Positions 3,034 to 36,525 of a DNA stretch of 64,000 nucleotides are shown here, one piece after another (position 1 is the first letter of the stretch; each line of letters begins with the position of its first letter). The notes beneath the pieces are model-generated. The model was given only the letters and a program-made list of their open reading frames with translations. It did not search any database and was not told the DNA's origin. The translations under genes and the position numbers were made by a program. The DNA lies in assembly GCA_034189655.1 (NCBI GenBank), contig JAXHUE010000003.1, forward strand, positions 35,969 through 99,968, given 5' to 3'. The DNA comes from Chloroflexota bacterium. GTDB taxonomy: Bacteria > Chloroflexota > Dehalococcoidia > E44-bin15.

Positions 3034-3216
3034 GTTATATCCTCCGTATCTATGATAGCAGACCGCTCCTCTACGAGCAACACACAGGGCGAGCCGGGCG
3101 CGGCATGTGCCTCGTGCAACGAGCGAGCGGCCGGGGCAGGCCCCTGGCGCGCCCCCTTACAGAGGTGGCGGATTGCCGCGTCCAGTGGCCTATGCTATAC
3201 TCGTGGCGGAGGCCCA

Positions 3217-4426
3217 GATGCCCATCGACCTGGTGAGGCTGGCGTTGCAGGTAGAGGGGCTCGCCGCCGAGCTCAAGGCAGGGGAGCGGAAGGCAGGGGA
3301 GCGCCTGGAGAGCGCCGTCGCCGCGCTCTGGGCCCAGGCCGACGCACTCGAGCAGTTTCGCGCCCGGCTCGCCGCGAGCCGTACTAGCTGGCTGGTGGCC
3401 GGCCTCGTCGACGGCCTGGGCGGGCGGGTGTCGCCGCCCCCCTGTCCCGGCGAGTTCACCGTCGTTGCCACCGATGGCTCCCACATCGATGTTGACCGTC
3501 ACAGCTCGGTGAGGTGCTGCCTGATTAACATCGGGAGCGCCGTGCTCCGCTACGGTGAGAGCCCTGGGGCCGAGCTCGTGGCCGTGCCCCAGCTCCTCTT
3601 CGGCGATGAGCTTATCATCGCCGACCCCTCCGCCCCCGGGGGTGGCGAGCGCGTCGAGGGGGCGCTCCTGGGGCTTGTGCGCGGCGTGGCCGAGTGCGAC
3701 GCGCTCGCCGCCCTCCTCGAGGGGCAGCCCGTAGAGCGGCCCGTGCTGGGCCTCATCGACGGCTCCCTCATCCTGTGGGGCCTGGCGGGGCGAGACTTCG
3801 AGGAGCAGAAGAGGTTCGTGAGGGAGGAGCTCCTCGACCGCCGTTACCTGGACGCCCTCGAGCGCATGAGGGTGCGCAGCGGGCGCGGGCCCTGTGTCCC
3901 CGCCAGCTACATAAGCTACCCGCGGAGCGCCGACGTAGTGAATGCGCTGCGCGTAGGCCTGTGCCCCCATGATGTCGCCGACTGCGACCGCTACTGCGCC
4001 GGGAACAGGGAGCGGGGGTGCGATGCCGTGTCCGGCGTGTGCGATGCCGACCTCTTCGCGGTGCTCCTCATGCCTGGCCAGAGGTCGGAGGCCTTCGTGA
4101 GCGGCTCCCGCTTCATGCAGCGGCACTATGGAGAGCACCAGATATGCTTCTTCTACTTGAAGCTGGAGGAGGAGGTGGCCCGGGTGGAGGTGCCGCGCTG
4201 GGTGGTGGATGGGGGGCTCCTGGACCTGGTGCACTGCCTGGTCCTCGACCAGTGCCGCCGCGGGCTGGGCTACCCGGTGGCGCTCCAGGAGGCGCACGAG
4301 CAGGCCGTGGTCACCGCCGCCTGTCGCGAGCAGTTCTGGGGGCTCATGGAGGGCGTCCTTGCCGAGGGCGGCGTGGCGCTGGGGGGCTCGGCCAAGCGCA
4401 TGAGCAAGCGCACGCGCTGGGTGTAA
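3217..4426 (+). CDS. nurA: NurA-family nuclease (DNA end-resection 5'-3' exo/endonuclease, RNase H-like fold)
   Basis: Two DGS motifs (VVATDGSHIDV and GLIDGSLILWG) at spacing characteristic of NurA domain catalytic Asp motifs. ~400 aa. The ATG at 3217 is preceded by GGCGGAGG, so the ORF-track start at 3107 is probably too early. First gene of an operon that ends in a HerA-like ATPase. Confidence 0.6.
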
Positions 4427-4516
4427 GAGCAGAGAGGTTCTGCACCGGGGCCAGGCCCCGGCGCAGCGCGTCTGTTTGAGTGTATAAGTATTAAAGTGAG
4501 GCGTGGGAGAGAGAGC

Positions 4517-5104
4517 GTGCCCACCAGGATAGGCGAGGTCATCGAGGCATCCACTGCGGAGTTCGTCGCCCAGTGCTACGAGCTGCACCGTCCGCCCCCC
4601 CTGGGCAGCCTGGTGCGCACCCGCGAGGGGGAGGTGGAGGTCTACGGCGTGGTGAGCCATGCCCAGACCCAGGGCATCGAGCCGGGGCGGCGCCCCATCG
4701 CCAGGGGCCGTGAAGAGGCCGTCGAGGAGGACATCTATCGCGCAAGCCCGCAGCTTGCCCGGCTGCTGCGCACCGATTTCAGCGCCCTCGTGGTGGGCCA
4801 CCGCGACGGCGAGCGCATCAGGCACTACCTGCCCCCGCGGCCGGCCATGCTCCACGGGTTCGTCCATGTCTGTGAGCGGGCGGAGGTCGCCGAGTTCAGC
4901 CAGTCCCTGGACTTCTTGAGCATCCTGGTCGGCGCCTGCGGGCAGGGGAGTGGCGATGAGCTGGTGGCCGCCGCGGTGCGCCAGGCGGCGGCGGCGCACG
5001 GCGACCCCCGCTCCTTCCTGGTGCGTGCCGGCAAGGAGCTCGCCGTGCTCCTGGGCGGCGACAGCCAGCGCCTGGGCATTATCTTGAGGAGGATAAAGGG
5101 GTGA
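4517..5104 (+). CDS. Hypothetical protein with HAS-barrel-like N-terminus (no ATPase domain), operonic between nurA and herA
   Basis: GTG at 4517 is preceded by GGGAGAGAGAG. N-terminus RIGEVIEASTAEFVAQCYELHRPPPLGSLVRT..EVEVYGVVSHAQT resembles the N-terminal HAS barrel of HerA-type proteins. The stop overlaps the herA GTG start (GTGA), suggesting translational coupling. Confidence 0.5.
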   Translation: MPTRIGEVIEASTAEFVAQCYELHRPPPLGSLVRTREGEVEVYGVVSHAQTQGIEPGRRPIARGREEAVEEDIYRASPQLARLLRTDFSALVVGHRDGERIRHYLPPRPAMLHGFVHVCERAEVAEFSQSLDFLSILVGACGQGSGDELVAAAVRQAAAAHGDPRSFLVRAGKELAVLLGGDSQRLGIILRRIKG

Positions 5105-6744
5105 GCCAGGGGAGTGATTTACATAATGAGTCACAGCGGCGGCTCGGCGTCGTCGTCGAGGGCTCGCTCACCAGGGGCGTCGAGGTCAGGCTCGACGGCG
5201 GCGTCTCCATCGAGGACATCGCCGTGGGCCGCTACGTCACCATCGAGGGGGAGAGGCGCCGCTTCTTCGGCATGATCACCGATGCCGAGCTGGGCACCAT
5301 CGACCCGCGGCTGCTCACCATGCCCCCGGATATATCAGACCCCTTCATCGCCGAGGTGCTCGCCGGCACCGGCACCTACGGCCGCATCCACGTCCTGCCC
5401 GTGCTCACCATCGGCGGGGACGCCATGGGCCTCCTGGAGGGGCCGCAGCCGGTGAAGACCGTGCCCGCCCACTTCTCCGCGGTGCGCGAGGCCAGCGAGC
5501 GCGACGTGGAGCAGGTCTTCGGCGGGGTGGAGGAGCGCCAGTTCTACATCGGCACCCCGCTCGACATGGAGACCAAGGTGCGGCTCGACCCCGGGGAGCT
5601 GGTGGTGCGCTCGAGCGGCGTCTTCGGCAAGAGCGGCACCGGCAAGACCTTCCTCGCCCGGCTGCTGCTCATCGGCATCATCCAGGAGGGCGCCGCGGTG
5701 AACCTGGTCTTCGACATGCACAGCGAGTACGGCTGGGAGGGGAGCAGCGAGGAGGGGCGAAAGGTGAAGGCACTCAAGCAACTCTTCCCCTCCAAGGTCG
5801 CCGTGTTCGCCCTCGACGAGGAAGGGGCGCGGCGGCGTAATGTCTCCACCGACTTCGTGGTGAAGATCGGCTATGACGAGGTGGAGCCCGAGGACATCGC
5901 CATGCTCCAGGAGACACTGGGCCTGAGCGAGGCCGCGGTGCAGGCCACGTACCGCCTGGCGCGGCACTACGGCGAGCGCCGCTGGCTGGAGTGCTTCCTC
6001 GACGTGGAGGGCAGGGAGGACATCGCCGCGCTGGCGCAGGGCCTGGGGGAGCACGAGGCCACCCTGGCCGCGCTGCGGCGCCGCCTCGATGTGCTGCGCC
6101 GTCTCTCGTTCCTGGTGCCCCACGCCGCAGACAACGCCATCCGTCACATACTGGAGTACCTCGACCGCGGGATGAACGTCGTCCTGGAGTTCGGGCGCTT
6201 CACCGACATCGTCGCCTACATACTGGTGGCCAACCTGCTCACCAGGCGCATCCACGAGCGCTGGCGCGAGCGCACGGAGCGGGCCATTGGCGGGGACGGG
6301 GACAAGCCGCCGCCCCTGGTCATCACCATCGAGGAGGCGCACAAGTTCCTGAGCCGGGAGCTTGCCGGGCACACCATATTCGGCACCATCGCCCGCGAGA
6401 TGAGGAAGTACAACTGCACCCTCCTGGTCATCGACCAGCGCCCCAGCGGCATCGACGAGGAGGTGATGAGCCAGATCGGCACCAAGATCACCTGCCTCCT
6501 CGACAACGAGCGCGACATAGAGAGCGTGCTCACCGGCGTCTCGGGCAAGGGGGAGCTCAGGGCGGTGCTGGCCAAGCTCGATTCACGGCAGCAGGCCCTC
6601 ATCTTCGGCCACGCCGTCCCCATGCCGGTGGTGGTGCGCACCAGGGAGTACGGCTCGGCGCAGTCCTACAGCGAGCTGGGCATCCGCGATGCCCTGGAGC
6701 GGCGCCGGCAGGCCGAGGAGGAAGGCAGAGACCTGTGGGGGTAG
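5101..6744 (+). CDS. herA: HerA-like hexameric ATPase/helicase (DUF87/FtsK-HerA superfamily)
   Basis: Walker A FGKSGTGKTFLARLL. Walker B/DEAH-like LVITIEEAHKFL. Conserved C-terminal LLVIDQRPSGIDEEVMSQIGTKI. N-terminal HAS-barrel-like region (LGVVVEGSLTRGVEVRL..VGRYVTIEGERRRFFGMI). Adjacent to the NurA-like gene. Confidence 0.75.
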   Translation: MSQGSDLHNESQRRLGVVVEGSLTRGVEVRLDGGVSIEDIAVGRYVTIEGERRRFFGMITDAELGTIDPRLLTMPPDISDPFIAEVLAGTGTYGRIHVLPVLTIGGDAMGLLEGPQPVKTVPAHFSAVREASERDVEQVFGGVEERQFYIGTPLDMETKVRLDPGELVVRSSGVFGKSGTGKTFLARLLLIGIIQEGAAVNLVFDMHSEYGWEGSSEEGRKVKALKQLFPSKVAVFALDEEGARRRNVSTDFVVKIGYDEVEPEDIAMLQETLGLSEAAVQATYRLARHYGERRWLECFLDVEGREDIAALAQGLGEHEATLAALRRRLDVLRRLSFLVPHAADNAIRHILEYLDRGMNVVLEFGRFTDIVAYILVANLLTRRIHERWRERTERAIGGDGDKPPPLVITIEEAHKFLSRELAGHTIFGTIAREMRKYNCTLLVIDQRPSGIDEEVMSQIGTKITCLLDNERDIESVLTGVSGKGELRAVLAKLDSRQQALIFGHAVPMPVVVRTREYGSAQSYSELGIRDALERRRQAEEEGRDLWG

Positions 6745-6778
6745 GCGGCGTGCCGACGTTCCGCTATAATGGAGAGGC

Positions 6779-8251
6779 ATGGTGCCCACCACTGGCCCGA
6801 TGACACGCCGTCCCCTCGTCGAGGAGATCGATGCCCCCTCCGCACTGGAGGCCTTCTCCCTGATCAGGGGGCGTCCCCACAGCTTCTTCCTCGATAGCGG
6901 CATGGGCCGCGAGCGCCTGGGCCGCTACTCGTTCATCGGCAGCGACCCCTTCCTGGTGCTCAAGAGCTACGGCCGCGATGTCTGCCTGGTCGAGGGCTGC
7001 AACGAGACCAGGATGAGCGCCGACCCCTTCGACGTGCTGCGGGAGGTACTGTCCCGGTACGCCCTCGACCCCGGCCCCGCGCCCATCCCCTTCACCGGCG
7101 GCGCCGTGGGCTACCTCGGCTACGACCTGTGCCACTTCGTCGAGCGCCTGCCCCAGACCGCCGCCGACGACCTGGGGCTCCCCGAGCTCTACCTGGCCTT
7201 CTACGACGGTGTCATCGGCTTCGACCACCTGGAGGGGCGGTGCTACGTCGCCGCAAGCGGCCTTCCCTGTGAGGAAGAGGAGCGGCGGCTGCGCCGCGCC
7301 CGGGAGCGCCTCGACGAGCTCAAGGACATCGTGGAGCGGGCCCCGCGGCAGGGAGAGGAGCGCCCCATGGAGCACGGCCAGCCCGCGGCGACCCCTGTGT
7401 CCAGCGTCGTGCCACAGTCAAACTTCACCCACGAGGGGTATGTGCGCGCGGTCGCGGCGGCGCGGGAGTACATCTGTGCCGGCGACATCTTCCAGGTGAA
7501 CCTGTCGCAGCGGTTCCAGGCCCCGCTCGACGTCGCCCCCTTCGAGCTGTACCGGCGCCTGCGCGCCATCAACCCGGCGCCGTTTGCCAGCTACTTAAAC
7601 CTCGACGGGGTGACCATCGTCAGCGCCTCGCCGGAGCGGTTCCTCCGCACGAGCGGCGACCTGGTGGAGACCCGCCCCATCAAGGGGACGAGGCCCCGGG
7701 GGCGCACGCCGGCCCGGGACCAGGCACTGGCCTGGGAGCTGGCGCACAGCGTCAAAGACCGCGCCGAGAACGTGATGATAGTAGACCTGGAGCGCAACGA
7801 CCTGGGGCGCGTGTGCCGCTATGGGACGGTGCGGGTGAGCGAGCTGTGTGCCCTGGAGCGCTATGCCACGGTGTTCCACCTCACCTCCACGGTGGAGGGC
7901 AGGCTGCGCCACGACCGAGACCGCGTAGACCTGCTCAAGGCCACCTTCCCTGGGGGCTCGATCACCGGGGCCCCCAAGGTGCGTGCCATGGAGATCATAG
8001 ACGAGCTGGAGCCCACGCGGCGGGGGGTCTACACCGGCTCCATCGGGTATGTGGGCTTCGATGGAGAGATGGACTTGAACATCGTCATTCGCACCTTCGT
8101 GGTAGCGGGGGGAAAGGCCTACTTCCAGGTAGGAGGGGGCATCGTGTACGATTCCGACCCCGAGGCCGAGTACGTGGAGACGCTGGACAAGGCGAGGGCC
8201 CTCGTCGAGTCGCTTGGGCCCCAGCCGCTCCCGGCACCAGAGGAGAGGTGA
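6779..8251 (+). CDS. pabB: Aminodeoxychorismate synthase component I (chorismate-binding enzyme, PabB/TrpE family)
   Basis: Chorismate-binding domain motifs (NPAPFASYLNL, SASPERFLR, ETRPIKGTRPRG, FPGGSITGAPK, RGVYTGSIGY). Assigned to pab rather than trp because the partner amidotransferase and a class IV aminotransferase (ADC lyase) lie downstream. Confidence 0.75.
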   Translation: MVPTTGPMTRRPLVEEIDAPSALEAFSLIRGRPHSFFLDSGMGRERLGRYSFIGSDPFLVLKSYGRDVCLVEGCNETRMSADPFDVLREVLSRYALDPGPAPIPFTGGAVGYLGYDLCHFVERLPQTAADDLGLPELYLAFYDGVIGFDHLEGRCYVAASGLPCEEEERRLRRARERLDELKDIVERAPRQGEERPMEHGQPAATPVSSVVPQSNFTHEGYVRAVAAAREYICAGDIFQVNLSQRFQAPLDVAPFELYRRLRAINPAPFASYLNLDGVTIVSASPERFLRTSGDLVETRPIKGTRPRGRTPARDQALAWELAHSVKDRAENVMIVDLERNDLGRVCRYGTVRVSELCALERYATVFHLTSTVEGRLRHDRDRVDLLKATFPGGSITGAPKVRAMEIIDELEPTRRGVYTGSIGYVGFDGEMDLNIVIRTFVVAGGKAYFQVGGGIVYDSDPEAEYVETLDKARALVESLGPQPLPAPEER

Positions 8252-8441: not shown

Positions 8442-11321
8442 ATGAGAAGTAAATATCCTGGGCTCACCAGGCCGACGGCGGTGCTCATAGCGCTGGCACT
8501 GATCGCCACACTTCTCGCCATCGTTATCCCGACGACCATTGGCTCGGCGGTCAACGAGGAGTGGGCCAACGCCGTCGTCGAGGAGGCGACTGAGAGGGTG
8601 GTCAACCCCGATAACGCCCTGGGCCCCAACGATGGCACGTGCGCCACCATGAGGCGCAGCGCCGAGCTTACCCTGGACATGGGAGTCGGCGAGGAGGCGC
8701 TGGACGGCCCGGGCAACGACCTCAAAGTCTATTCCCAGGGCGGTGACTACGAGGTCTTCGTGTGGGACGGCTTCACCTGGCAGTCGCTGGGTATTGGCGC
8801 CGGCACTCAGGAGTTCGACCTGGCCGATGCCGGCGTGGCCCAGTCGCGGTACGTGAGGATTGAGAATCGCACCAAGGGTGATATATGCATCGATGCCGTA
8901 GAGGTGCTGGGCGGCGAGCCCAAGCCCAGGATAACCGCTCCTGGCTACGAGGCCGACCTCACCGGCAATACCCAGATAGTGGCCGAGGACGAGGATGATG
9001 GCAACATCACCGATTGCTGGTTCTACTACTGGTACGACCTCGACCAGGACTGCGTGGCCGATGAGGGCGAGGACACCTGGCACCTCATAGGCCACGATAG
9101 CGTTGGCGGCAATTGGAGCGTGTGGTGGGACACCGGCAACTACAGCGACTGCTGCTACATCCTGAAGGCCGTGATGGAGAACTCCAGGGGCATCCAGGGT
9201 GACAGCTACGAGCAGGGCTTCCCCCACAACGTGCAGCTCACCAACCACGACCCCCAGCCCGAGATAACCGCCCCTGATGACCAGACCCCCTGCGATGCCG
9301 CCCCGGTGAGTGGCAACGTGACCCTCACCGCGGTGGACAACAGCTTTGAGCAGGGGGCAGACGTCACAGAGTGCACGTTCGAGTACTACTACGATGAGAA
9401 CATGAACTGCGACGACGATGACGGCAACCAGTGGACCGACATCGCCGGCATGGGCGCTAGCGGTGTGGTCAAGGGTAACGGTGGCGAGGGCTACGAGTTC
9501 ACCTACGACTGGGACACCACCCAGATGCCAGACTGCTGCTACCTCCTCCGTGTCACCATGGAGGACAAGCACGGGCGTGCCAACACCACGGACCATATCA
9601 ACATCGCCCTCTCCAACCACGACCCGCAGCCCGTGTTCTTGAACCCCGGCGAGGACGACACCGTGCAGGGCACCATCCTGCTGGAGGTAGAGGACGCCAG
9701 CCTTGACCAGGGCAGCGACGTGATATGCACCACCTGGGAGTACTGCTACGCCACCGACGAAAGCCAGTGCAGCGGTGATGACTGGAACCTGATACTGCAG
9801 GACTGCGACCCCGTCGGTGACACCTGGAGGCTGTGGTGGGACACCAACCAGGTACAGGACTGCTTCTACACCATCCGCGCCACCATGGAGGATGAGCACG
9901 GCCGTATCGGGGTGAGCTACCTCCACGTCGGCGTGGGCAACGACCCGCCGGTGGTCGAGATAGAGCAGCCCTACAACAACGACCTCCTCTGTGAGGACAA
10001 CCCGGTGAGTGGCAACGTCACCGTCAGGGCCAAGGACACGCAGCAGGCCACCGACATCGAGGCCGCCACCTTCCGCTACTACTATGACACAAACCAGGAC
10101 TGCGTGGCCAACGACGGCAACTCGTGGGTGCAGTTCGGCTACGATGGGACGAAGGAGATGGTGGGCGGCAACGCCACCTTCGAGGTGAACTGGGACACGA
10201 GCCAGCTCAACGACTGCTGCTACATCGTCCGCGTCTACATATCCGACCTCCACGCGCTGAACGGCTATGACACCCTCTGCGTGGCCCTCACCAACCACAA
10301 CCCGGTGCCCGAGATCACCCAGCCCGAGGGCAACACCACCATAAGCGGCACCCAGAGGATCATCGCCAAGGACACCGGCTTTGACCTGGGCAACGACATC
10401 AACCTGCCTGGCCACGGCAACGTGACCTTTGAGTATGCCACCGCAGACCAGAACTGCCAGCAGGTGGGCCAGTGGACAGACATGGGGGCGACCGTCACCC
10501 AGGTCGGCAGCCCGCCCGACCGCACCTGGTACGTGGACTGGGACACCACCCAGGTGGAGGACTGCTTCCACCTCATCAGGGTGACCCTGGAGGACAAGCA
10601 CGGCAGAACTGGCACCACCACCATCTGCGTGGGCGTGGCCAACAACCCGCCCCAGCCGCGGATGACGGCCCCGCCTGATGCCACTCCCTGCACCGCGGGC
10701 GAGGTGAACGGGAACATCGACCTGGTGGCGGTGGACGACAAGGCCAACAGCACCGTGCAGAGCTGCGTCTTCGAGATCTGGGACGACTTCAACCAGAACT
10801 GCACCGCCGACGAGGGGAACACCACCTGGGTCGCCATCGGCTCGGGCACGCTCTCTGCGGGCAACTGGACCCTCGATTGGGACACCACTGATGTCCCCGA
10901 CGAGTGCTACCTGGTGCGGGCCAACATGACCGACATCCACGGTCTGGGCAACGTCTCCACCCACATCAACCTGTACGTGAACAACCTGCGCCCGGCGCCG
11001 TACTTCTGGTATCCGTACGACAGGTCGGACTATCCTGTGGGCGACCCCGTCAACCTCTACGTGTACGACAAGACCGGGGCCACCGATATCCACGACGCCG
11101 ATGTGTACTTCGAGTGGTGGGACCCGGTAGCGAGGGAGTGGGTCTACATAGGCACCGGCACCTCTTACTATGAGAGCTCCATGGGCATGTGGATGTGGTA
11201 CAACTACAACCTCTACTACCCCGACCGCGACTGGATAGCGGTGAGGGTGACCATGACCGACAAGGGGGCCACACCACAGTCCGGCGACGACATCGTCCAG
11301 ATTTACCGAGTGCAAGAGTAG
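8442..11321 (+). CDS. Large exported Cys-rich tandem-repeat protein (959 aa): N-terminal signal/anchor, ~125-aa beta-sandwich-like domain, then seven ~105-120-aa repeats of an unrecognised domain
   Basis: N-terminus MRSKYPGLTRPTAVLIALALIATLLAIVIP is a signal peptide or type II anchor. Seven repeats (aa ~160-270, 271-393, 394-500, 501-620, 621-735, 736-849, 850-959) share three conserved blocks: PQP(E/V)IT.P at the start, C.F.YYYD.N.(D/N)C..D(D/E)GN.W in the middle, and W.(L/V).WDT.....DCCY..R..MED.HGR at the end. The protein is acidic and N/T/D/W/Y-rich with conserved Cys pairs. The opposite-strand 997-aa ORF is a V/H/G-rich shadow. Confidence 0.7.
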   Translation: MRSKYPGLTRPTAVLIALALIATLLAIVIPTTIGSAVNEEWANAVVEEATERVVNPDNALGPNDGTCATMRRSAELTLDMGVGEEALDGPGNDLKVYSQGGDYEVFVWDGFTWQSLGIGAGTQEFDLADAGVAQSRYVRIENRTKGDICIDAVEVLGGEPKPRITAPGYEADLTGNTQIVAEDEDDGNITDCWFYYWYDLDQDCVADEGEDTWHLIGHDSVGGNWSVWWDTGNYSDCCYILKAVMENSRGIQGDSYEQGFPHNVQLTNHDPQPEITAPDDQTPCDAAPVSGNVTLTAVDNSFEQGADVTECTFEYYYDENMNCDDDDGNQWTDIAGMGASGVVKGNGGEGYEFTYDWDTTQMPDCCYLLRVTMEDKHGRANTTDHINIALSNHDPQPVFLNPGEDDTVQGTILLEVEDASLDQGSDVICTTWEYCYATDESQCSGDDWNLILQDCDPVGDTWRLWWDTNQVQDCFYTIRATMEDEHGRIGVSYLHVGVGNDPPVVEIEQPYNNDLLCEDNPVSGNVTVRAKDTQQATDIEAATFRYYYDTNQDCVANDGNSWVQFGYDGTKEMVGGNATFEVNWDTSQLNDCCYIVRVYISDLHALNGYDTLCVALTNHNPVPEITQPEGNTTISGTQRIIAKDTGFDLGNDINLPGHGNVTFEYATADQNCQQVGQWTDMGATVTQVGSPPDRTWYVDWDTTQVEDCFHLIRVTLEDKHGRTGTTTICVGVANNPPQPRMTAPPDATPCTAGEVNGNIDLVAVDDKANSTVQSCVFEIWDDFNQNCTADEGNTTWVAIGSGTLSAGNWTLDWDTTDVPDECYLVRANMTDIHGLGNVSTHINLYVNNLRPAPYFWYPYDRSDYPVGDPVNLYVYDKTGATDIHDADVYFEWWDPVAREWVYIGTGTSYYESSMGMWMWYNYNLYYPDRDWIAVRVTMTDKGATPQSGDDIVQIYRVQE
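8919..11318 (+). repeat. In-frame coding tandem repeat array (7 diverged units of ~320-370 bp)
   Basis: DNA-level reflection of the seven protein repeats. Units are diverged (protein identity roughly 30-50%), so this is not a recent satellite expansion. Confidence 0.6.
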
Positions 11322-11354
11322 CCCAGCCGCGGTTGCGGCCGGAAAGAGACCGCC

Positions 11355-11389
11355 GGGGGGCGTCCTTCAATGGGCGCCCCCCTTTCGTT
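11355..11389 (+). terminator. Rho-independent terminator after the repeat-protein gene
   Basis: GGGGGGCG - 11-nt loop - CGCCCCCC followed by TTTCGTT, 34 nt downstream of the stop. Confidence 0.55.
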
Positions 11390-11484
11390 GGGGTGGTGTG
11401 CCCCTCCCGTCCCAGCCTTGCCCCCTCCCGCCGTAGCTGCTACAATCTGTGTGGGGGGAGTGCCTTTATAAAGGGGAGGGGGCC

Positions 11485-12087
11485 TTGGTCATCATCATCG
11501 ATAACTACGACTCCTTCTGCTACAACCTGGCCCAGTACATCGGGGAGCTGGGCTGGGAGCCCATGGTGTGCCGCAACGACCAGCTCTCACTGGTGGAGAT
11601 CGCGGCCCTGGCCCCGTCCCACATCGTGATCTCTCCCGGGCCGGGCACCCCGCTCGATGCCGGCATCTCCAACGCAGTGATACGCCGCTTTGCCGGCCAC
11701 ATCCCCATACTGGGGGTGTGCCTGGGACACCAGTGCATCGGCCACTGCTTCGGCGGGCACATAGTGCGCACCGTGCCGGTGCACGGCAAGTCCTCCCTCA
11801 TCTACCACGACGGCAAGACGCTGTACCGCGGCCTGGCCAACCCCTTCGAGGCCGGGCGCTACCACTCCCTGGCCGTCGCCCCGTGGGGCCTGCCCGCGGA
11901 GCTTGAGCTCTCGGCGCAGACCGAGACCGGGGAGGTCATGGGGGTGCGCCACCGCCAGTTCGTGGTCGAGGGCATCCAGTTCCACCCCGAGTCCATCCTC
12001 ACCGCCTGTGGCCACGATGTGCTGCGTGCCTTCCTGGGCATAGAGCATCCGCGGTGGCAGGCCGCCCTGGGGGGGCCCCATGGCTAG
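11485..12087 (+). CDS. pabA: Aminodeoxychorismate/anthranilate synthase component II (class I glutamine amidotransferase)
   Basis: LVIIIDNYDSFCYNLAQY N-terminus and GVCLGHQCIG catalytic Cys motif, with HPES near the C-terminus. Likely TTG start at 11485, 4 nt after GGGGAGGGGG; the ORF-track start at 11449 adds 12 non-homologous residues. Confidence 0.8.
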   Translation: MVIIIDNYDSFCYNLAQYIGELGWEPMVCRNDQLSLVEIAALAPSHIVISPGPGTPLDAGISNAVIRRFAGHIPILGVCLGHQCIGHCFGGHIVRTVPVHGKSSLIYHDGKTLYRGLANPFEAGRYHSLAVAPWGLPAELELSAQTETGEVMGVRHRQFVVEGIQFHPESILTACGHDVLRAFLGIEHPRWQAALGGPHG

Positions 12088-12931
12088 CTGGGTGTACGTA
12101 GACGGGGCCCTGGTGCCCGGCGACCAGGCCGCCGTCTCCCCCCTCGACCGCGGCCTGCTCTACGGCTACGGCCTGTTCGAGACCGTGCGCGCCTACGAGG
12201 GGCGCTGCTTCCGCCTGGGGCGGCACCTGGAGCGGCTCATGGCAGGTGCCGAGCGGCTCGCCCTCGCCGCCGCGCTCGACCGCGATGGCCTGGAGCGGGC
12301 GGTGTATCGCACCATGGAGGCAAACGGCCTCCGCGATGCCCGGGTGCGGCTCACCGTCACCGCCGGCGTAGGCGAGCGGGGGCTCTCCCCACCGCTGTCG
12401 GGGGCTGCCACCGTCATCGTAGTCGCCGAGGGGCTGGCCGCGCCGGGCCACGACGAGGGGGTGAGCGCCGCCATCGTCGGTGCGAGGAGGAACAGCGCCT
12501 CGCCGCTCGCCGGGATAAAGTCGTTGAACTACCTGGAGGCCCTGGTGGCCCACGCCCAGGCCCTGGCCCAGGGTGCCCAGCAGGCCATCATGTTAAACGA
12601 GCGCGGCCACGTCGCCGAGGGCAGCACCAGCAACATCTTCCTGGTCTCCGCAGGGAGACTGCTCACCCCGGCGCCGGCCTGTGGCATCCTCTGTGGCATA
12701 ACCAGGGAGGCCGTGCTGGAGTGTGCCGCCGACCTCGGCATCGAGGCCGCCGAGGTGGAGCTATCCCCGGAGGCCCTCTTCGCCGCCGACGAGGTCTTCC
12801 TCACCAGCTCCATAGTCGAGCTTGCGCCCGTGGCCCGCGTGGACGGCCGGGCCATCGGCGACGGCGGGCGTGGCAAGGTCACCTCCCTGCTCGCCGCCGC
12901 CTACCGGGAGCTGGTGCGGCGGGAGAGATGA
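12080..12931 (+). CDS. pabC: Aminodeoxychorismate lyase (class IV PLP aminotransferase fold)
   Basis: 283 aa, class IV aminotransferase features (YGYGLFETVRAY, EGSTSNIFLV, GITR). Size and operon context with pabA (8-nt overlap) favour ADC lyase over IlvE. Confidence 0.65.
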   Translation: MASWVYVDGALVPGDQAAVSPLDRGLLYGYGLFETVRAYEGRCFRLGRHLERLMAGAERLALAAALDRDGLERAVYRTMEANGLRDARVRLTVTAGVGERGLSPPLSGAATVIVVAEGLAAPGHDEGVSAAIVGARRNSASPLAGIKSLNYLEALVAHAQALAQGAQQAIMLNERGHVAEGSTSNIFLVSAGRLLTPAPACGILCGITREAVLECAADLGIEAAEVELSPEALFAADEVFLTSSIVELAPVARVDGRAIGDGGRGKVTSLLAAAYRELVRRER

Positions 12932-14100
12932 GCAGGAGGAACGCGGCGCGGCTGCTCCCCCTCTATGCCGTAGGCTTCCTGGGCTATGTCGGCTTCAGCC
13001 TGCTCTTTCCCGTCGTCCCCCAGTATGCCGACTCCGTGGGCACGCCCCTGGCACTGGTGGGGGTGGCGGTGGGGATGTTCTCCTACGTCACCGCGGTGGC
13101 CATGGTGCCCTTTGGCCTCCTGTCAGACCGGGTGGGACGGCGTCTCCTCCTGGTGGTAGGGCTGGTGCTGTACACAGTGGCCCCGCTGCTCTACCTCTGG
13201 GCCGACGGCCCGCTTCTGCTCATCGTGGTGAGGGGCATACACGGGCTGGCCTCGGCGGCCTTCATCCCCGCGGCCAACGCCATCGTGGTGGACATGGCCC
13301 CGCCCCAGAGGCGGGGCGAGGCCCTGGGGTGGTTCACCGGTGCCACCATGATGGGCTTCATCGTCGGCCCGGTAACGGGCGGCTTCCTCTTGAGCGCCTT
13401 CGGGTTCGATGCCGTCTTCTACGCGTGCAGCCTCACCTCCCTCATCGCCCTGGTGCTGGTGCTCCCCTGGCTTAAGGGCATGCCGGAGAGCCCCGCCGCC
13501 GCAGAGCGCAGCGAGGGCACCTGGGCCTGGATGGGGCAGCGGCGGGCCATCGGTGCCCTGCTCACCCCCCTGTTCATCACCTTTGGGTCGGGCACCATCG
13601 TGGCCTTCATGCCCCTGTATGGGGAAGAGCTGCTCATAACCGCTGCGCAGGTAGGGGTGATGATAACCGCGGTCTATGCCGCCTCGGCGCTGGTGCGTGC
13701 CCCGGCGGGGCGGCTCTCCGACCGCATGGGGAGGGGGCGGGTCATCCTCTCAGGCTTCGCTGCGAGCGCCCTCTTCGTCGCCCTCATCGCCGTGCCCACG
13801 TCCTTCCCGCTGCTGGTGCTGGTGGGCGTTGCCTTCGGGCTGGGCATGGGGCTGGCCATGCCCGCGGCATTCGCCCTGGTCGCCGACCTGGCCCCGCCTG
13901 ACAGGCGCGGGCTGGCCATGGGGGCCGCCAGCAGCTCGCTACAGGCGGGACTGGCCCTGGGGGCGACGGCCATGGGGGGCGTGGCCGTGGCCGTGGGCTA
14001 TGCCCCCATGTTCGGGGCGTGCGGCGCCGTCATGGCCCTGGGCCTTGCGGTGGTGTACCTCTTGCTGCGCCGCCGCGGGGACAGCGGTCGGCAGGGGTGA
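12928..14100 (+). CDS. MFS transporter
   Basis: 12 predicted TM helices. MFS loop motifs GLLSDRVGRRLLLV and GRLSDRMGRGRVI. ATG overlaps the pabC stop (ATGA). Confidence 0.75.
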   Translation: MSRRNAARLLPLYAVGFLGYVGFSLLFPVVPQYADSVGTPLALVGVAVGMFSYVTAVAMVPFGLLSDRVGRRLLLVVGLVLYTVAPLLYLWADGPLLLIVVRGIHGLASAAFIPAANAIVVDMAPPQRRGEALGWFTGATMMGFIVGPVTGGFLLSAFGFDAVFYACSLTSLIALVLVLPWLKGMPESPAAAERSEGTWAWMGQRRAIGALLTPLFITFGSGTIVAFMPLYGEELLITAAQVGVMITAVYAASALVRAPAGRLSDRMGRGRVILSGFAASALFVALIAVPTSFPLLVLVGVAFGLGMGLAMPAAFALVADLAPPDRRGLAMGAASSSLQAGLALGATAMGGVAVAVGYAPMFGACGAVMALGLAVVYLLLRRRGDSGRQG

Positions 14101-24468: not shown

Positions 24469-27400
24469 TCACGCCCGCTCCACGCGCACCGCGGCCACCT
24501 TGAGCTCTGGTATCTTGGCCACCGGGTCCAGGCCTGGGTTGGTGACGATATTGGTACGGCTCTCGGTGAAGTGGAAGCTCATGGAGACCACCCCCGGCGG
24601 CGAGCCATCGGTCACGCGGGCGTGAGCGAAGACCTCCCCCCGCCGCGAGGCAACGCGCACCCTGTCGCCGCCGCCTATGCCCAGCCTCTCGGCGTCCGCG
24701 GGGTTGATCTCCACCAGCTCCTGCCCCCGTATCTGGTTTAAGCCGGCCACGCGCCTGGTCATGGTGCCGGTGTGGTACTGGTTGAGCAGGCGCTCCGTGG
24801 TGAGCACCAGGGGGTAGTCGCTGCTGGGCTCCTCCAGGGGCGGCCGGTAGGTGAGCGGGATGAAGCGGCCCAGGCCGCGGGAGAAGAGCTGGGTGTGGAG
24901 GATGGGCGTCCCCGGGTGGTCGTCGAAGGGGCAGGGCCAGGCCAGGCCCCCCTCCTCCAGCCGCTGGTAGGAGATGCCGCCGTAGGCCGGGGAGAGCCCG
25001 GCGATCTCGTCGAAGACCTGCGAGGGGTGGGAGAAGTCGAAGCCCCCGGCCCCCATGCGCTGGGCGATGCGGCACACTATCTGCCAGTCGGGCAGGGCCT
25101 CTCCCACCGGGTCGATGGCCCGGCGCACCCGCTGCACGCGGCGCTCGGTGTTGGTGAAGGTGCCGTCCTTCTCGGCGAAGCTCGCTGCCGGCAGCACCAC
25201 GTCGGCGAGCTGGGCGGTCTCGCTCAAGAAGATGTCCTGCACCACCAGGAAGTCCAGGTTCTTCAAGGCCTGCTCCACGTGGGTGGCGTCGGGCTCACTC
25301 AAGAGCGGGTTCTCTCCCACCAGGTAGATGGCGCGCACCTCGCCGCGGTAGGCGGCATCTACCATCTCGGTGAGGGTGAGACCGGGCGCGGGGTTTAGCG
25401 TCACATCCCAGGCCGACTCGAACTTCACCTGGAGGTTGGGGTCGGCCACGCCCTGGTAGCCAGGGTAGACGTTGGGCAGGGCGCCCATGTCACAGGCCCC
25501 CTGCACGTTGTTCTGCCCGCGGAGGGGGTTCACCCCCGTCGAGGGGCGGCCCACGTTGCCGGTGAGCATTGCCAGGTTGGCGGTGGCGATCACGTTATCG
25601 GTGCCGTGGGAGTGCTGGGTGATGCCCATGGCGTAGAGGATGGTGGCCGGGCTGCCCTCGGCGTAGAGGCGGGCGGCCTCGGCGACGCGCTCCTGGGGCA
25701 CGCCGGTGAGCTGCTCCACTCGCTCTGCGTCGAACCACTCGAGCGACTCCCGGAACTCGGCATAGTTCTCGCAGCGCTCCTCGATGAACTGCTTGTCGAT
25801 CAGGCCCTGCTCCACGATGACCCGCATCATCCCCATGAGCAGTGCGACGTCGCTCCCCGGCCGCTGCTGCAGCCAGACGGTGGCGAAGCGGCACAGGTCG
25901 ATGTGGCGCGGGTTGGCCACGATGAGAGCGGCCCCCCTCCTCACCGCGTCCTTTATCTCGAGGCCGATGATGGGGTGGCTCGCCGTGGTATTGGTGCCGA
26001 TGGCGAAGATACAGCGGGCCTGGCCGATCTCGGCGATGGAGTTGGTCATGGCCCCGCTGCCGAAGCTCTGGGCCAGCCCGGAGACGCTGGGGGCGTGGCA
26101 CAGGCGGGCGCAGTGGTCGACGTTGTTGGTGCCCATCGCGGCACGGGCGAACTTCTGCAAGAGGTAGTTCTCCTCGTTGGTGCAGCGCGCCGAGGCGATC
26201 AGGGCAAACCTCTCGCCCCGGTACTGGGGGAGCCTGCTGGCGATGAGCTCCAGGGCCTCGTCCCACGAGGCCGGCACCAGCCCCCCTGCTTTCCTGACGA
26301 GGGGGGTGGTGAGCCTCTCGGGGTGGCTCACGAAGTCGGCGATGCCGAAGCGGCCCTTGACGCATGTCTTGCCCCGGTTCACCGGGCTCTCCGGGTCGCC
26401 GCGCACGTCGACGATGGTGTTGCCGACGACGCCCAGGTACAGGCTACAGCCCACGCCGCAGTAGGGGCAGACGGTCTTCACCTCGGCCAGTGGCGGCCGG
26501 CTCCCCTTGGACACCAGCGCCCCCACCGGGCAGCTGGCGATGCACAGGCCGCACGACTCGCAGGTGGTATCGGCCAGGGAGCGGGCCCCAGGCGGCACTG
26601 CCACCCGGTAGGCGAAGCTCCACGCCCCCACGCCCTGCACGGAGAGGCAGGTGCGGGCACAGCGGGCGCACATGATGCACTTATTGGCGTCGATCTCCAC
26701 GAAGGGGTGGGAGCTGTCCACGGGATAGTGGTAGCCTGCCTCCCTGGCGAGCGAGGGGGAGACCCCGTAGTCAGCGGCGAGGTGGCGCAGGGTGCAGCTC
26801 TCCACGGCGCCGCAGCCGCAGGCAAGGCAGCGCTGCGCCTCCTTCTGTGCCAGGTCCTGGGTGTAGCCGCGCTCTATCTCCTGGAAGTTGCCCTGTCTCT
26901 CGTCGGGGCGGAGCCGGGGCATGGCGCGCCGCGGCTGCCGCTCTATGGTGGCGAACTCCTCGCCCCCCAGCTCATCGAGCTCGCCCTTGCGCCAGTTGAA
27001 GGGCTTCGTGGCATCGGCGAGCGGCTCCCCGCGCAGGTAGCGGTCGATGGAGATGGCCGCCTTTCGACCCGCGGCCATGGCGTCCACGGCGCGCGCCGGC
27101 CCGGTGACGGCATCGCCGCCGGCAAAGACCCCCTCGATGTCGGTCTGGAGCGTCTCCTCGTCGGCCACGATGACGTCGCCCCTGCCTATCTGGAGGCCGT
27201 CGGCGCTGAAGGAGATGTCGGGGCCCTGCCCGATGGCGGCGATCACCGAGTCCACGGGCACGGTGAACTCGGAGCCGGGGATGGGCTCGGGGCGGGGGCG
27301 CCCGCTCGCGTCGGGCTCGCCCAGGGCCATGCGGGTACAGCTCAGGCTGGCCACCCGGCCGTTGCGGCCGTTCACCGTGGTCGGCGCCGCCAGGAAGTGG

Positions 27401-28536
27401 AGCCTGATCCCCTCCTCCTCGGCCTCCTCAACCTCCCACTCGCTGGCCGGCATCTCGGCGCGAGAGCGGCGGTAGACGATGGTGACCTCCTCGGCGCCCA
27501 TGCGCAGCGCGGTGCGGGCGGCGTCGATGGCGGTGTTGCCGCCCCCGACGACCGCTACCCGCCGCCCCACCTCCATGGGCTGGCCCAGGGCGCAGGCGCG
27601 GAGGAAATCGGTGCCCGGCAGCACCCCCTCCAGCTCCTCCCCCTCCACCCTCATGCGCTGGCTCTTGTGGGCGCCGATGGCGAGGAAGCAGGCGTCGTAG
27701 CCCTCCTGGAGCAGGCCCTGGAGGGTGATGTCCCGGCCCAGGGCGCACCCCGTCCTGATGTCGACGCCCATCTGGGCGATGGCCGCTATCTCCCGGTCGA
27801 GGATATCCTTGGGCAGGCGGTAGTCCGGTATCCCGTAGCGCAGCATCCCCCCCGGCTGGGGCAGGGCCTCGAAGACGACGACGGCGTGCCCCATGCGCGC
27901 CAGGTAGAAGGCGCAGGCCAGCCCCGCCGGCCCCGCGCCGACCACGGCCACGCGGCGGCCGCTGTCCGGCCCCCGGGGCGGGACGTACATAGGCTCCGAG
28001 GAGAACAGGTCATAGTCGGCGGCGGCGCGCTTTAGGTGGCAGATGGCCAGGGGCTCGTCCACCAGGTTACGGCGGCACGCCTCCTCGCAGGGGTGGGGGC
28101 ACACCCTGCCCAGGACGGCGGGCATGGGCACCCGCTCCTTGATGAGGGCGACGGCGTCCCGCAGGCGCCCCCTGGCGATCAAGTGTATGTAGCCCTGGAC
28201 GTCTATCCCCGCGGGGCAGGCCAGCTCACAGGGGGCGGTGCAGTCGCCGTAGTGGGAGGCCAGGAGCTCCTCCAGGCGGCGCTTCCTGGCGCTGCGCACC
28301 CTCTCGCTGTCGGTCTGCACCGTCATGCCCGGCCAGATGGTGGTGGCGCAGCTGGGCACCATGCCGTGACCGGCCACCTCGACGGTGCATATCAGGCAGC
28401 CGCCCAGCGGCTCCAGGTGGTCGTCGTGGCACAGGGTGGGGATGGGGATGCCGCTCGCGCGGCAGACCTCCAGGATGGTCTCGTGGGCCTCGGCCCGTAG
28501 CTCTCTCCCGTTTACGGTAATGCTTACCTCGGTCAC
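24469..28536 (-). CDS. fdhA: Formate dehydrogenase catalytic (alpha) subunit fused to N-terminal 2Fe-2S ferredoxin and GltD-like NAD(P)H/FAD domain (1355 aa), Cys-type (non-seleno)
   Basis: N-term 2Fe-2S (CHDDHLEPLGGCLICTV). GltD-like domain (RRVAVVGAGPAGLACAFYLARMGH). MopB N-terminal 4Fe-4S (CPYCGVGCS). Fdh active-site region NVDHCARLCHAPSVSGL with Cys at the Sec/Cys position and AMGITQHSHGTDN. Long opposite-strand ORF (25606..28035) is a shadow. Confidence 0.8.
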   Translation of the reverse strand: MTEVSITVNGRELRAEAHETILEVCRASGIPIPTLCHDDHLEPLGGCLICTVEVAGHGMVPSCATTIWPGMTVQTDSERVRSARKRRLEELLASHYGDCTAPCELACPAGIDVQGYIHLIARGRLRDAVALIKERVPMPAVLGRVCPHPCEEACRRNLVDEPLAICHLKRAAADYDLFSSEPMYVPPRGPDSGRRVAVVGAGPAGLACAFYLARMGHAVVVFEALPQPGGMLRYGIPDYRLPKDILDREIAAIAQMGVDIRTGCALGRDITLQGLLQEGYDACFLAIGAHKSQRMRVEGEELEGVLPGTDFLRACALGQPMEVGRRVAVVGGGNTAIDAARTALRMGAEEVTIVYRRSRAEMPASEWEVEEAEEEGIRLHFLAAPTTVNGRNGRVASLSCTRMALGEPDASGRPRPEPIPGSEFTVPVDSVIAAIGQGPDISFSADGLQIGRGDVIVADEETLQTDIEGVFAGGDAVTGPARAVDAMAAGRKAAISIDRYLRGEPLADATKPFNWRKGELDELGGEEFATIERQPRRAMPRLRPDERQGNFQEIERGYTQDLAQKEAQRCLACGCGAVESCTLRHLAADYGVSPSLAREAGYHYPVDSSHPFVEIDANKCIMCARCARTCLSVQGVGAWSFAYRVAVPPGARSLADTTCESCGLCIASCPVGALVSKGSRPPLAEVKTVCPYCGVGCSLYLGVVGNTIVDVRGDPESPVNRGKTCVKGRFGIADFVSHPERLTTPLVRKAGGLVPASWDEALELIASRLPQYRGERFALIASARCTNEENYLLQKFARAAMGTNNVDHCARLCHAPSVSGLAQSFGSGAMTNSIAEIGQARCIFAIGTNTTASHPIIGLEIKDAVRRGAALIVANPRHIDLCRFATVWLQQRPGSDVALLMGMMRVIVEQGLIDKQFIEERCENYAEFRESLEWFDAERVEQLTGVPQERVAEAARLYAEGSPATILYAMGITQHSHGTDNVIATANLAMLTGNVGRPSTGVNPLRGQNNVQGACDMGALPNVYPGYQGVADPNLQVKFESAWDVTLNPAPGLTLTEMVDAAYRGEVRAIYLVGENPLLSEPDATHVEQALKNLDFLVVQDIFLSETAQLADVVLPAASFAEKDGTFTNTERRVQRVRRAIDPVGEALPDWQIVCRIAQRMGAGGFDFSHPSQVFDEIAGLSPAYGGISYQRLEEGGLAWPCPFDDHPGTPILHTQLFSRGLGRFIPLTYRPPLEEPSSDYPLVLTTERLLNQYHTGTMTRRVAGLNQIRGQELVEINPADAERLGIGGGDRVRVASRRGEVFAHARVTDGSPPGVVSMSFHFTESRTNIVTNPGLDPVAKIPELKVAAVRVERA

Positions 28537-31312: not shown

Positions 31313-31404
31313 CAGGTGGGTGCCTGCGATAGTACGATATGGTAGAGTGGTATGTGGAATAGACGGAGGCCCTATCCCATTCTGCTGAGTTGGAGGGAGT
31401 GCCC

Positions 31405-31596
31405 ATGACCATGCCCACAGAGGTTGAACACGTCCCCAAGAAGTGTGCCAAGTGTGGCAACGACATCATCAAGCGGGAGCAACTGGAGATGCACTCCCGC
31501 TGGGGCTTTGCCGGTCCCGCCTACCGCTTCAACGTCTACACCTGCGGCAACTGCGGCTACTCCGAGTTCTTCTACCAGAAGAGCACGTGGATCTAG
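31405..31596 (+). CDS. Small zinc-ribbon protein (63 aa, CxxC...CxxC)
   Basis: KKCAKCGN ... YTCGNCGY four-Cys ribbon. GGAGGGA RBS 6 nt upstream of ATG. Nested between mutS and mutL on the same strand. Confidence 0.45.
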   Translation: MTMPTEVEHVPKKCAKCGNDIIKREQLEMHSRWGFAGPAYRFNVYTCGNCGYSEFFYQKSTWI

Positions 31597-31615
31597 CGAG
31601 AGAGGCAACCTGGCC

Positions 31616-34222: not shown

Positions 34223-34274
34223 GCTTGTCCTCCTTTCTTAAAAGACCGCAAAGTAATGGGCGGGGCCATATCCG

Positions 34275-36475: not shown

Positions 36476-36525
36476 CCTCGCTGTGCCGGGAGCTGCCGTG
36501 GCCCCTCCTCCGGGCCTGGTGCCCC

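Follow-up and report, generated by a model that had tools for sequence, protein, structure and literature searches.

Three co-directional genes, encoding a NurA-type nuclease, a small protein of no named family (here called X) and a HerA-type ATPase, form a conserved chromosomal module of Chloroflexota. The module was analyzed in a 64,000-nucleotide stretch of a Chloroflexota genome contig, referred to as the window. The most likely role of X is that of a dedicated third subunit, or of a regulator, in a machine processing the ends of DNA double-strand breaks. The preferred reading, to which a probability of about 0.6 is assigned, is that of a vertically inherited, chromosomal three-component NurA-HerA DNA-end-processing machine, in which X is the dedicated third subunit. 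The three-part layout recurs across Chloroflexota and in a few other bacterial phyla.

Organization of the locus

The order nurA, X, herA is found where the initial annotation of this DNA had placed it, with boundaries slightly corrected. The module ends at position 6744, as proposed, but starts at the nurA ATG at 3218 rather than at 3217. The middle gene exists as described, but encodes 195 amino acids (aa) and not 196. Its start is most likely the GTG at 4517, because this choice fits the lengths of the homologues, and that of a 195-aa database protein 99% identical to X; an alternative in-frame GTG at 4496 would give a product of 202 aa. A GGAGG sequence is located 5 nt before the start of nurA. 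The start codon of herA overlaps the stop codon of X as GTGA, and a GAGGAGG sequence lies 7 nt upstream. Features of the locus are listed in Table 1.

Table 1. Features of the nurA-X-herA locus (positions refer to the window)
Feature	Position	Strand	Description
Promoter-like site	3173–3201	+	TTGCCG-17 nt-TATACT, with TG; in the divergent deacetylase-nurA gap, just upstream of nurA
nurA	3218–4426	+	402-aa RNase-H-fold nuclease of the NurA family; ATG start
GC-rich hairpin	4445–4461	+	7-bp stem, 3-nt loop, no T-run after; in the 90-nt nurA-X gap
X	4517–5104	+	195-aa protein, no family name; GTG start
herA	5101–6744	+	547-aa HerA/FtsK-superfamily ATPase with its own HAS barrel; GTG start

A promoter consensus scan returned 2 sites, against 0.3 expected. 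The site upstream of nurA is promoter-like by pattern match only, a label which says nothing on function. The hairpin in the nurA-X gap was considered as a terminator and rejected: the terminator scan returned none, the T-run is missing, and the folding is not statistically unusual (z-score -1.72, not significant). The hairpin is probably not a terminator.

The neighbours are housekeeping genes, in agreement with the initial annotation. The order CDF transporter, deacetylase, nurA, X-herA, pabB-pabA-pabC is common to the window and to a relative 81% identical in HerA. The GC content is uniform over the module, with no anomaly. Neither mre11 nor rad50 is found within the 64 kb analyzed, and no membrane, pilus or relaxase genes are found near the module.

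The nuclease and the ATPase

The product of nurA matches the Pfam family PF09376 with 75.6 bits (cutoff 21), aa 81–365 covering the full model. The predicted structure, made with database homologues, has an RNase-H-like fold, and its best matches are solved NurA structures. On both grounds the protein belongs to the NurA family, as originally proposed, and its close homologues are named by NCBI 'DNA double-strand break repair nuclease NurA'. A search of the PDB with the NurA sequence profile gave nothing meaningful, the informative result being that of the fold comparison; by predicted structure, the nuclease is closest to the archaeal resection enzyme. The DGS motifs map at aa 86–88 and 181–183. 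A set of 17 diverse orthologues shows no variation at D86, E159 and D181, and conservation of at least 90% at H360; judged by motif position and not by superposition, these residues would correspond to the catalytic D-E-D-H set of the Sso and Pfu enzymes. The protein also features an N-terminal helical hairpin (aa 5–53) and a Cys4 insertion (aa 249–268).

HerA matches the Pfam families DUF87 (PF01935; 94.3 bits, cutoff 23.2) and HAS-barrel (PF09378; 36.5 bits, cutoff 25.2), and carries the Walker A GKSGTGKT (aa 176–183), the Walker B IEEAH (aa 410–414) and a DQRPS motif (aa 445–449). The family assignment is confirmed, and all the motifs originally quoted for NurA (two DGS) and HerA (Walker A, Walker B, QRPS block) are found in the translations. 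Among solved structures, the sequence is matched by the SIR2-associated HerA 8wiv (E 8e-18, over only 112 residues), and by the HerA proteins of T. kodakarensis and S. solfataricus (E about 4e-16). Scores against the NCBIfam equivalogs HerA_Thermprot, helicase_HerA, HerA_antiphage, HerA_antiphage_2 and CedD range from 54 to 79 bits, and are all below the cutoffs (600–970). By sequence, the window HerA falls outside all curated NCBIfam subfamilies, in a distinct HerA clade.

Protein X

The predicted fold of X is very confident. A HAS-type beta-barrel occupies residues 1–118; a linker helix and a five-helix bundle (aa 121–193) come after it. Walker motifs are not present in X. The protein had been described as made by a HAS barrel only; its HAS-barrel nature is borne out by the predicted structure, but X is not barrel-only, because of the extra five-helix bundle. 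The conserved motifs are GRRPIARG (aa 57–64), SPQLARLLRT (aa 77–86, with P78 invariant) and LPPRPAMLH (aa 105–113).

Sequence comparisons alone place X at the margin of known families. X scores 17.5 bits against PF09378, under the cutoff of 25.2, although 29 of 68 family members match the model at E ≤ 0.01 (best 2e-9); the same 68 proteins match no other Pfam family. The hhalign probability for X against HAS barrels is just 25%, and a search of the PDB with the X profile gave nothing meaningful. PF26500 (DUF8166) is a weak precomputed match on one Bacillota homologue of X, but is not returned by a Pfam scan of the same protein, and no paper mentioning PF26500 was found. As for NurA, the informative result is the fold comparison, in which the X model matches HerA N-terminal regions only, including the HAS regions of anti-phage HerAs. 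X aligns collinearly with residues 7–165 of its cognate HerA. In terms of predicted structure, X is a paralogue of the HerA N-terminus with its own C-terminal helical domain.

SPQLARLLRT, the most conserved motif of X, aligns with the alpha1 helix of the HerA HAS domain. In the T. kodakarensis structure, this helix and the loop preceding it in HerA contact NurA (PMC12977600). The corresponding surface of X may plausibly be a contact surface as well.

X homologues number 3222, sort into 801 clusters at 50% identity, and feature invariant and near-invariant residues. These data essentially refute the notion that X is a leftover of a duplicated herA in the course of decay, or an unrelated passenger gene, without function in the system, a notion fitting its look of a truncated HerA-like N-terminus below the Pfam threshold; the confident fold, a sequence more conserved than that of NurA, and a position kept across phyla also speak against it. 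A 372-aa NurA-X fusion (P0228) is probably an assembly artefact, as it resides on a contig of 2x coverage in which nurA is split by a frameshift.

Conservation and linkage of the three genes

Relatives were collected by a profile search of genome contigs with a HerA alignment. The HerA clade counts at least 586 confirmed genome matches. Upstream sequence of at least 700 nt is available for 72 loci, nearly all from Chloroflexota, and in 69 of these X immediately precedes herA; the X-herA gap has a median of about 20 nt, with many overlapping pairs. A NurA gene is found near herA in 37/53 loci with at least 5.5 kb of upstream sequence. All these linkage statistics are conditioned on HerA, because loci were found through the HerA alignment. 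X is missing at three HerA loci with full upstream sequence and a nearby NurA at 16/53; therefore, the genes are not strictly inseparable. NurA-X pairs without an adjacent HerA reside in locus L004 and in L092, from a MAG labelled Deltaproteobacteria, X-HerA pairs without a nearby NurA in a KSB3 locus (L091) and in many Chloroflexota. The module is split, with a partner missing from the cluster, in L061, L070 and L078 as well.

Over 50 loci, the mean identity to the window proteins is 51.7% for X, 46.7% for NurA and 60.6% for HerA, X being more conserved than NurA. Conservation suggests that all three genes are under purifying selection. The clade, with identities of 52–81% across Chloroflexota, is near-universal and vertically inherited. 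The triad is conserved and not sporadic, and the view that such systems are uncommon in bacteria fails for this lineage, given the genome matches and the thousands of proteins homologous to NurA and to X.

In a Bacillota MAG (L088; GCA_009711615.1) and in a metagenome contig (L007) the genes are arranged as nurA-X-herA-mre11-rad50; in a further locus (L065) mre11 follows herA.

Comparison with known systems

The archaeal HerA-NurA end-resection complexes (S. solfataricus, P. furiosus, T. kodakarensis) are encoded as herA-mre11-rad50-nurA. Here the host is bacterial, the order is nurA-X-herA(-mre11-rad50), with the conserved X between nurA and herA, NurA carries the helical hairpin and the Cys4 insertion, and HerA stays below all the NCBIfam HerA equivalog cutoffs. 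The Deinococcus-Thermus systems (drNurA-HerA, PDB 7f6d; Thermus NurA-HepA) likewise are bacterial and chromosomal, with nurA followed by herA among metabolic genes. In Deinococcus the two genes form an operon, and NurA docks on the HAS barrel of HerA (PMC9960219); in Thermus the two-gene unit has the stop codon of nurA overlapping the start codon of herA (PMC5448004). The described bacterial pairs are two-gene units, and the triad appears undescribed, as originally suggested: no paper on it was found in the literature searched, and a mention in early comparative genomics is possible.

Anti-phage HerAs (Sir2-HerA/Nezha, DUF4297-HerA, TdpAB) are hexamers coupled to an effector by their N-terminal face, as would be the case here. 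Their effectors are Sir2, DUF4297 or TdpB instead of NurA, and they are two-gene systems found in defence or mobile contexts, whereas the present module includes X and has housekeeping neighbours. In ATPases of the F1/V1/FliI type the barrels are always fused to the ATPase; X, in contrast, is free-standing, and its barrel is followed by a helical bundle instead of an ATPase. The N-terminal beta-barrel crown of these enzymes accounts for the 'ATP synthase' part of the name HAS-barrel.

A proposed three-component machine and its alternatives

In the proposed machine, HerA would be a ring-shaped translocase of double-stranded DNA, and NurA the RNase-H-fold nuclease seated on its N-terminal (HAS-barrel) face. 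X would be an ancient paralogue of the HerA N-terminal module, having kept the HAS barrel and the linker, lost the ATPase and gained a private five-helix bundle. The overlap of the X stop and the herA start would have the two proteins produced together, and therefore in roughly equal amounts. X could add a HAS tier to the stack, with the HerA ring on one side and the NurA dimer on the other, or grip NurA by the alpha1-helix surface, the same one that HerA uses; either way, it would set the coupling of the nuclease to the motor. The machine would then feed DNA ends to NurA, probably acting downstream of Mre11-Rad50 in double-strand-break resection. Several points count against this model. The cellular role of bacterial NurA-HerA is disputed: deletion mutants of Deinococcus and Thermus are not sensitised (PMC9960219), and a 2026 study of T. 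kodakarensis questions a pure resection role (PMC12977600). The sequence similarity of X to HAS barrels is weak, some HerA loci have no X or no nearby NurA, and the window contains neither mre11 nor rad50.

A more specific form of this model is tentative. X would be an obligate stoichiometric subunit, placed between the HerA motor and the NurA dimer either as a HAS-barrel ring of its own or alternating with the HerA barrels. The module would represent a three-component end-resection class, standard in Chloroflexota, including the abundant marine SAR202, and also found in some Bacillota and other phyla, whose nuclease carries a previously unreported Cys4 metal site.

X may instead be a decoy or a brake, which mimics the NurA-docking domain and sequesters NurA, or caps the HerA pore, so that the nuclease stays apart from the motor until damage occurs. 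X is a copy of the NurA-docking domain of HerA, the NurA-X pairs without adjacent HerA (L004, L092) suit such a role, and unrestrained NurA-HerA of T. kodakarensis degrades both strands in vitro (PMC12977600). Computation does not separate an inhibitor from an adaptor. Translational coupling is tightest with HerA (69/72), and a stoichiometric HerA partner fits at least equally well; this reading is held to be unlikely.

The initial annotation also considered a defence module. An anti-phage triad, with HerA as motor, a nuclease as effector and X as adaptor, would resemble Sir2-HerA, DUF4297-HerA and TdpAB, but is improbable. PADLOC matches neither NurA nor X, the NCBIfam anti-phage HerA model gives the window HerA 72 bits where the cutoff is 800, and no relatives were found among 2.9 million viral contigs. 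The housekeeping flanks, the conserved synteny, the lack of GC anomaly, the vertical inheritance of the near-universal clade and the linkage to mre11-rad50 (L007, L088) argue in the same direction.

Improbable as well is a role in another DNA transaction, such as transfer, uptake or replication-fork processing, rather than in double-strand-break resection. Relatives of HerA take part in transjugation in Thermus and in DNA import in archaea, and the window HerA is a weak match of CedD. Bacterial mutants of nurA and herA are not sensitive to damage. Against such a role stand the similarity of the partner nuclease to the archaeal resection enzyme, the clustering with mre11-rad50 in relatives, and the lack of membrane, pilus and relaxase genes nearby.

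Significance

The literature presents NurA-HerA as an archaeal machine of two proteins, rarely found in bacteria and there of unclear role. The module analyzed here belongs to a large bacterial clade which is closer to the archaeal enzymes than the Deinococcus-Thermus pair studied so far, is sometimes still linked to mre11-rad50, and almost always includes an extra unnamed protein, derived from the same part of HerA on which the nuclease docks. Should X be a true subunit, the coupling of motor and nuclease would differ from expectation in both architecture and regulation, and the clade would provide a natural experiment on the fitting of a C2 nuclease dimer to a C6 ring. A function would also be gained for a family of several thousand proteins now annotated as hypothetical, which are common in Chloroflexota of the subsurface and the ocean.

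Organization of the triad

Three ORFs on the + strand, namely nurA, herA and between them a gene without family name, here called X, were found by ORF search at 3218-6744 of the window. The initial annotation had proposed the same triad; its nurA start was one base ahead of the real one, and every motif it quoted was found at the residues to which it had been assigned. The GTG at 4517 is preferred as the X start because homologues measure 190-200 aa, and a database protein 99% identical to X measures 195 aa; starting at an alternative in-frame GTG (4496) would lengthen the protein to 202 aa. The nurA-X gap (90 nt) contains a GC-rich hairpin, in which no terminator is predicted and whose stability is statistically ordinary. 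The X stop codon and the herA start share the tetranucleotide GTGA, and this overlap suggests that X and HerA are co-translated in similar amounts.

Features of the window (nt positions; aa, residues of the protein)
Feature	Position	Strand	Description
Promoter-like site	3173-3201		pattern match
nurA	3218 (ATG)-4426	+	402 aa; GGAGG 5 nt upstream of start
NurA N-terminal helical hairpin	3230-3376	+	aa 5-53; helices aa 5-39 and 41-53; pLDDT about 70
NurA Cys4 insertion	3962-4021	+	aa 249-268; C-x6-C-x3-C-x7-C (CPHDVADCDRYCAGNRERGC)
X	4517 (GTG)-5104	+	195 aa; GGGAG 7 nt upstream; most plausible start
herA	5101 (GTG)-6744	+	547 aa; GAGGAGG 7 nt upstream
ORF between pabB and pabA	8442-11321	+	959 aa; N-terminal membrane anchor
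Two long overlapping candidate ORFs	24469-28536	-/+	1355 aa (-), 809 aa (+)
mutS and mutL, tandem	28760-33307	+	850 and 627 aa; about 22 kb downstream of the triad
Wood-Ljungdahl-type genes	33302-38478		RACo and pterin-binding methyltransferase

NurA and HerA

Both proteins are true members of the families to which they had been assigned. In Pfam profile searches NurA scores 75.6 bits against the NurA family (cutoff 21), and HerA 94.3 bits against DUF87 and 36.5 bits against HAS-barrel. Residues D86, E159 and D181 of NurA are invariant in 17 diverse orthologues, and H360 is conserved in at least 90%. No NurA was found among the PDB sequence matches of the window protein, searched singly or as a profile. 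The best matches of HerA among sequences of solved structures, over the C-terminal part, are a SIR2-associated HerA and the two archaeal HerAs; Deinococcus HerA was not detected at E <= 1e-3, and with all NCBIfam HerA equivalogs the window HerA scores far under cutoff. The two proteins fall in a clade separate from those curated, and resemble the archaeal enzymes more closely than the Deinococcus-Thermus pair that has been studied.

NurA carries two additional elements. Cysteines spaced as C-x4-12-C-x2-4-C-x5-14-C mark the insertion in 45 of 53 full-length orthologues, four cysteines at other spacings occur in 4, and the insertion is missing in the NurAs of 4 loci (L004, L065, L074, L077). It is modelled by AF2 at low confidence, and possibly binds Zn or an Fe-S cluster; to our knowledge, no Cys4 metal site has been reported for NurA. 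The helical hairpin lies ahead of the Pfam NurA domain and keeps its length throughout the clade; it could be a dimerisation arm or bind X or HerA.

X is a paralogue of the HerA N-terminal module

Neither Pfam nor NCBIfam has a family dedicated to X. The sole match of the window protein in the two collections is HAS-barrel, at 17.5 bits, under cutoff; HAS-barrel is matched at E <= 0.01 by 29 of 68 diverse family members, none of which matched any other family. The family is large, with 3222 matches in a 90%-clustered database, and 801 clusters at 50% identity (475 of these at E <= 1e-10). The AlphaFold model of X is very confident (pLDDT 96, pTM 0.90), and features a beta-barrel (residues 1-118) with a short helical insertion (70-83), followed by five helices (121-193). 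X had been described as HAS-barrel-only: the barrel is borne out, the restriction leaves out the C-terminal helical bundle.

The 50 top Foldseek hits of the model are all HerA chains (best E 5e-7). In profile-profile alignment X is collinear with 83 cognate HerA N-termini over 140 columns (E 7.7e-4), X SPQLARLLRT lying opposite HerA SDPFIAEVLAGT, and X LPPRPAMLHGFVHVCERAEVAEF opposite HerA PQPVKTVPAHFSAVREASERDVEQVF. These fold matches and this alignment identify X as an ancient paralogue of HerA's N-terminal module (barrel and linker helix), one that lacks the ATPase and carries a helical bundle not shared with HerA.

One member is auto-named "Helicase HerA barrel domain-containing protein" in UniRef. 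A weak precomputed match to PF26500 (DUF8166) marks P0277, a Bacillota X homologue encoded at 7001-7576 of locus L088; P0277 did not match PF26500 when scanned against Pfam locally, and the literature searched does not mention this family, which may be a recent Pfam entry overlapping the X family. The X barrel is partly recognised by automated annotation, the three-gene system is not.

Conservation and arrangements

The triad is conserved rather than sporadic. Scanning one genome per species with an alignment of four clade HerA sequences gave at least 586 confirmed matches. Linkage was counted in the best 80 of these, scored by HMMs for X, NurA and HerA; all are from Chloroflexota (Dehalococcoidia, SAR202, Anaerolineae, Chloroflexia, Caldilineaceae), except one MAG labelled Acidobacteriota. 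Among these 80, X lies directly upstream of herA in 69 of the 72 loci with at least 700 nt upstream; the gap has a median of about 20 nt, and overlaps of 1-10 nt are many. The three loci without X have a divergent gene upstream of herA instead. Solo herA genes with a divergent upstream gene lie around 6001 in L061, L070 and L078. Where at least 5.5 kb of upstream sequence is available (53 of the 80 loci), X is found in 50 and nurA in 37, nurA-to-X spacing ranging from overlap up to 3.6 kb. NurA, X and HerA of 50 complete triads share on average 46.7%, 51.7% and 60.6% identity, respectively, with their window counterparts; constraint on X is at least as strong as on the nuclease.

The order nurA-X-herA was also found at two loci (L006, L089) in a search begun from X homologues. 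Locus L001, from a close relative, has CDF, deacetylase and pabBAC flanks as in the window, and four genes between nurA and X-herA (5644-7984: unknown gene, DUF3795, GNAT acetyltransferase, SMR transporter); an MmeI-like N6-methyltransferase/restriction gene (10246-13851) separates herA from pabB. The module therefore tolerates inserts at the nurA/X and herA/pabB junctions, not at X/herA. X-herA without nurA occurs in a KSB3 MAG (L091), nurA-X without adjacent herA in L004 (4795-6606) and L092 (5832-7570, adjoining groES-groEL in a MAG labelled Deltaproteobacteria). X stays with whichever partner is present, as expected of a protein working with both. An apparent fusion of the NurA C-terminus to X (372 aa, L090, 3450-5167) is likely an assembly artefact, found on a 2x-coverage contig with a frameshift-split nurA.

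Bacterial NurA-HerA has been described in the literature as a two-gene unit, and termed rare; in the Thermus unit, the stop codon of nurA and the start codon of herA overlap (PMC5448004). The window system is nurA-X-herA, and the module, said by the initial annotation to be uncommon in bacteria, is common in its phylum. A third, HAS-barrel gene is not mentioned in the full-text literature searched, to which the foundational comparative papers do not belong, and the triad is apparently undescribed, as had been supposed.

Genomic setting

The triad resides among housekeeping genes, as first noted: a cation-efflux transporter, a HemW-like radical-SAM protein, a deacetylase, pabB, pabA and pabC, with mutS and mutL 22 kb downstream. 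GC content is flat across it, and synteny is shared with a relative 81% identical in HerA. NurA and X have no PADLOC match, HerA matches are partial, and a search of 2.9 million viral contigs yielded no relative. In three lineages mre11, or mre11 and rad50, are kept beside herA, and the order nurA-X-herA-mre11-rad50 occurs in L007 and L088, the latter from the MAG of a spore-forming Bacillota bacterium; neither gene lies within the 64-kb window. Taken together, flanks, GC content, PADLOC and viral negatives, synteny and mre11/rad50 linkage support a chromosomal DNA-end-processing role, and argue against a defence island, the alternative once suggested. The triad is real and conserved, and most probably a repair-type chromosomal module rather than a defence system.

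The mutS-mutL and Wood-Ljungdahl-type genes fit a Dehalococcoidia-like chromosome segment. The 959-aa ORF and the 809-aa + strand ORF have no Pfam match. The former contains some seven repeats, each roughly 110 aa long and ending in a D-C-C-Y-x-L-R-V-x-M-x-D-x-H-G-like motif; its lower GC (0.62 vs 0.70 in the flanks) and strong AT skew make it look inserted into the pab cluster.

A proposed third subunit of the NurA-HerA machine

In solved complexes a NurA dimer is seated on the HerA hexamer at its HAS-barrel face (PMC9960219), and in T. kodakarensis all NurA-HerA contacts are made via HAS alpha1 helices and the preceding loops (PMC12977600). The most conserved motif of X, which includes the invariant P78, aligns to the HerA HAS alpha1 helix. 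X is best interpreted as a third subunit of the machine, its contact, stoichiometry and effect on activity all being inferred. X would add a HAS tier between the HerA motor and the NurA nuclease, or alternatively hold NurA through its HerA-like surface; either way, it would tune motor-nuclease coupling. The main mechanistic rival is that X acts as a decoy or brake rather than as a coupling subunit, and the two are not separable computationally. Even for the organisms studied, what NurA-HerA does physiologically is not settled (PMC9960219; PMC12977600). The third-subunit reading of X provides a testable hypothesis on a protein family that has several thousand members and no name.
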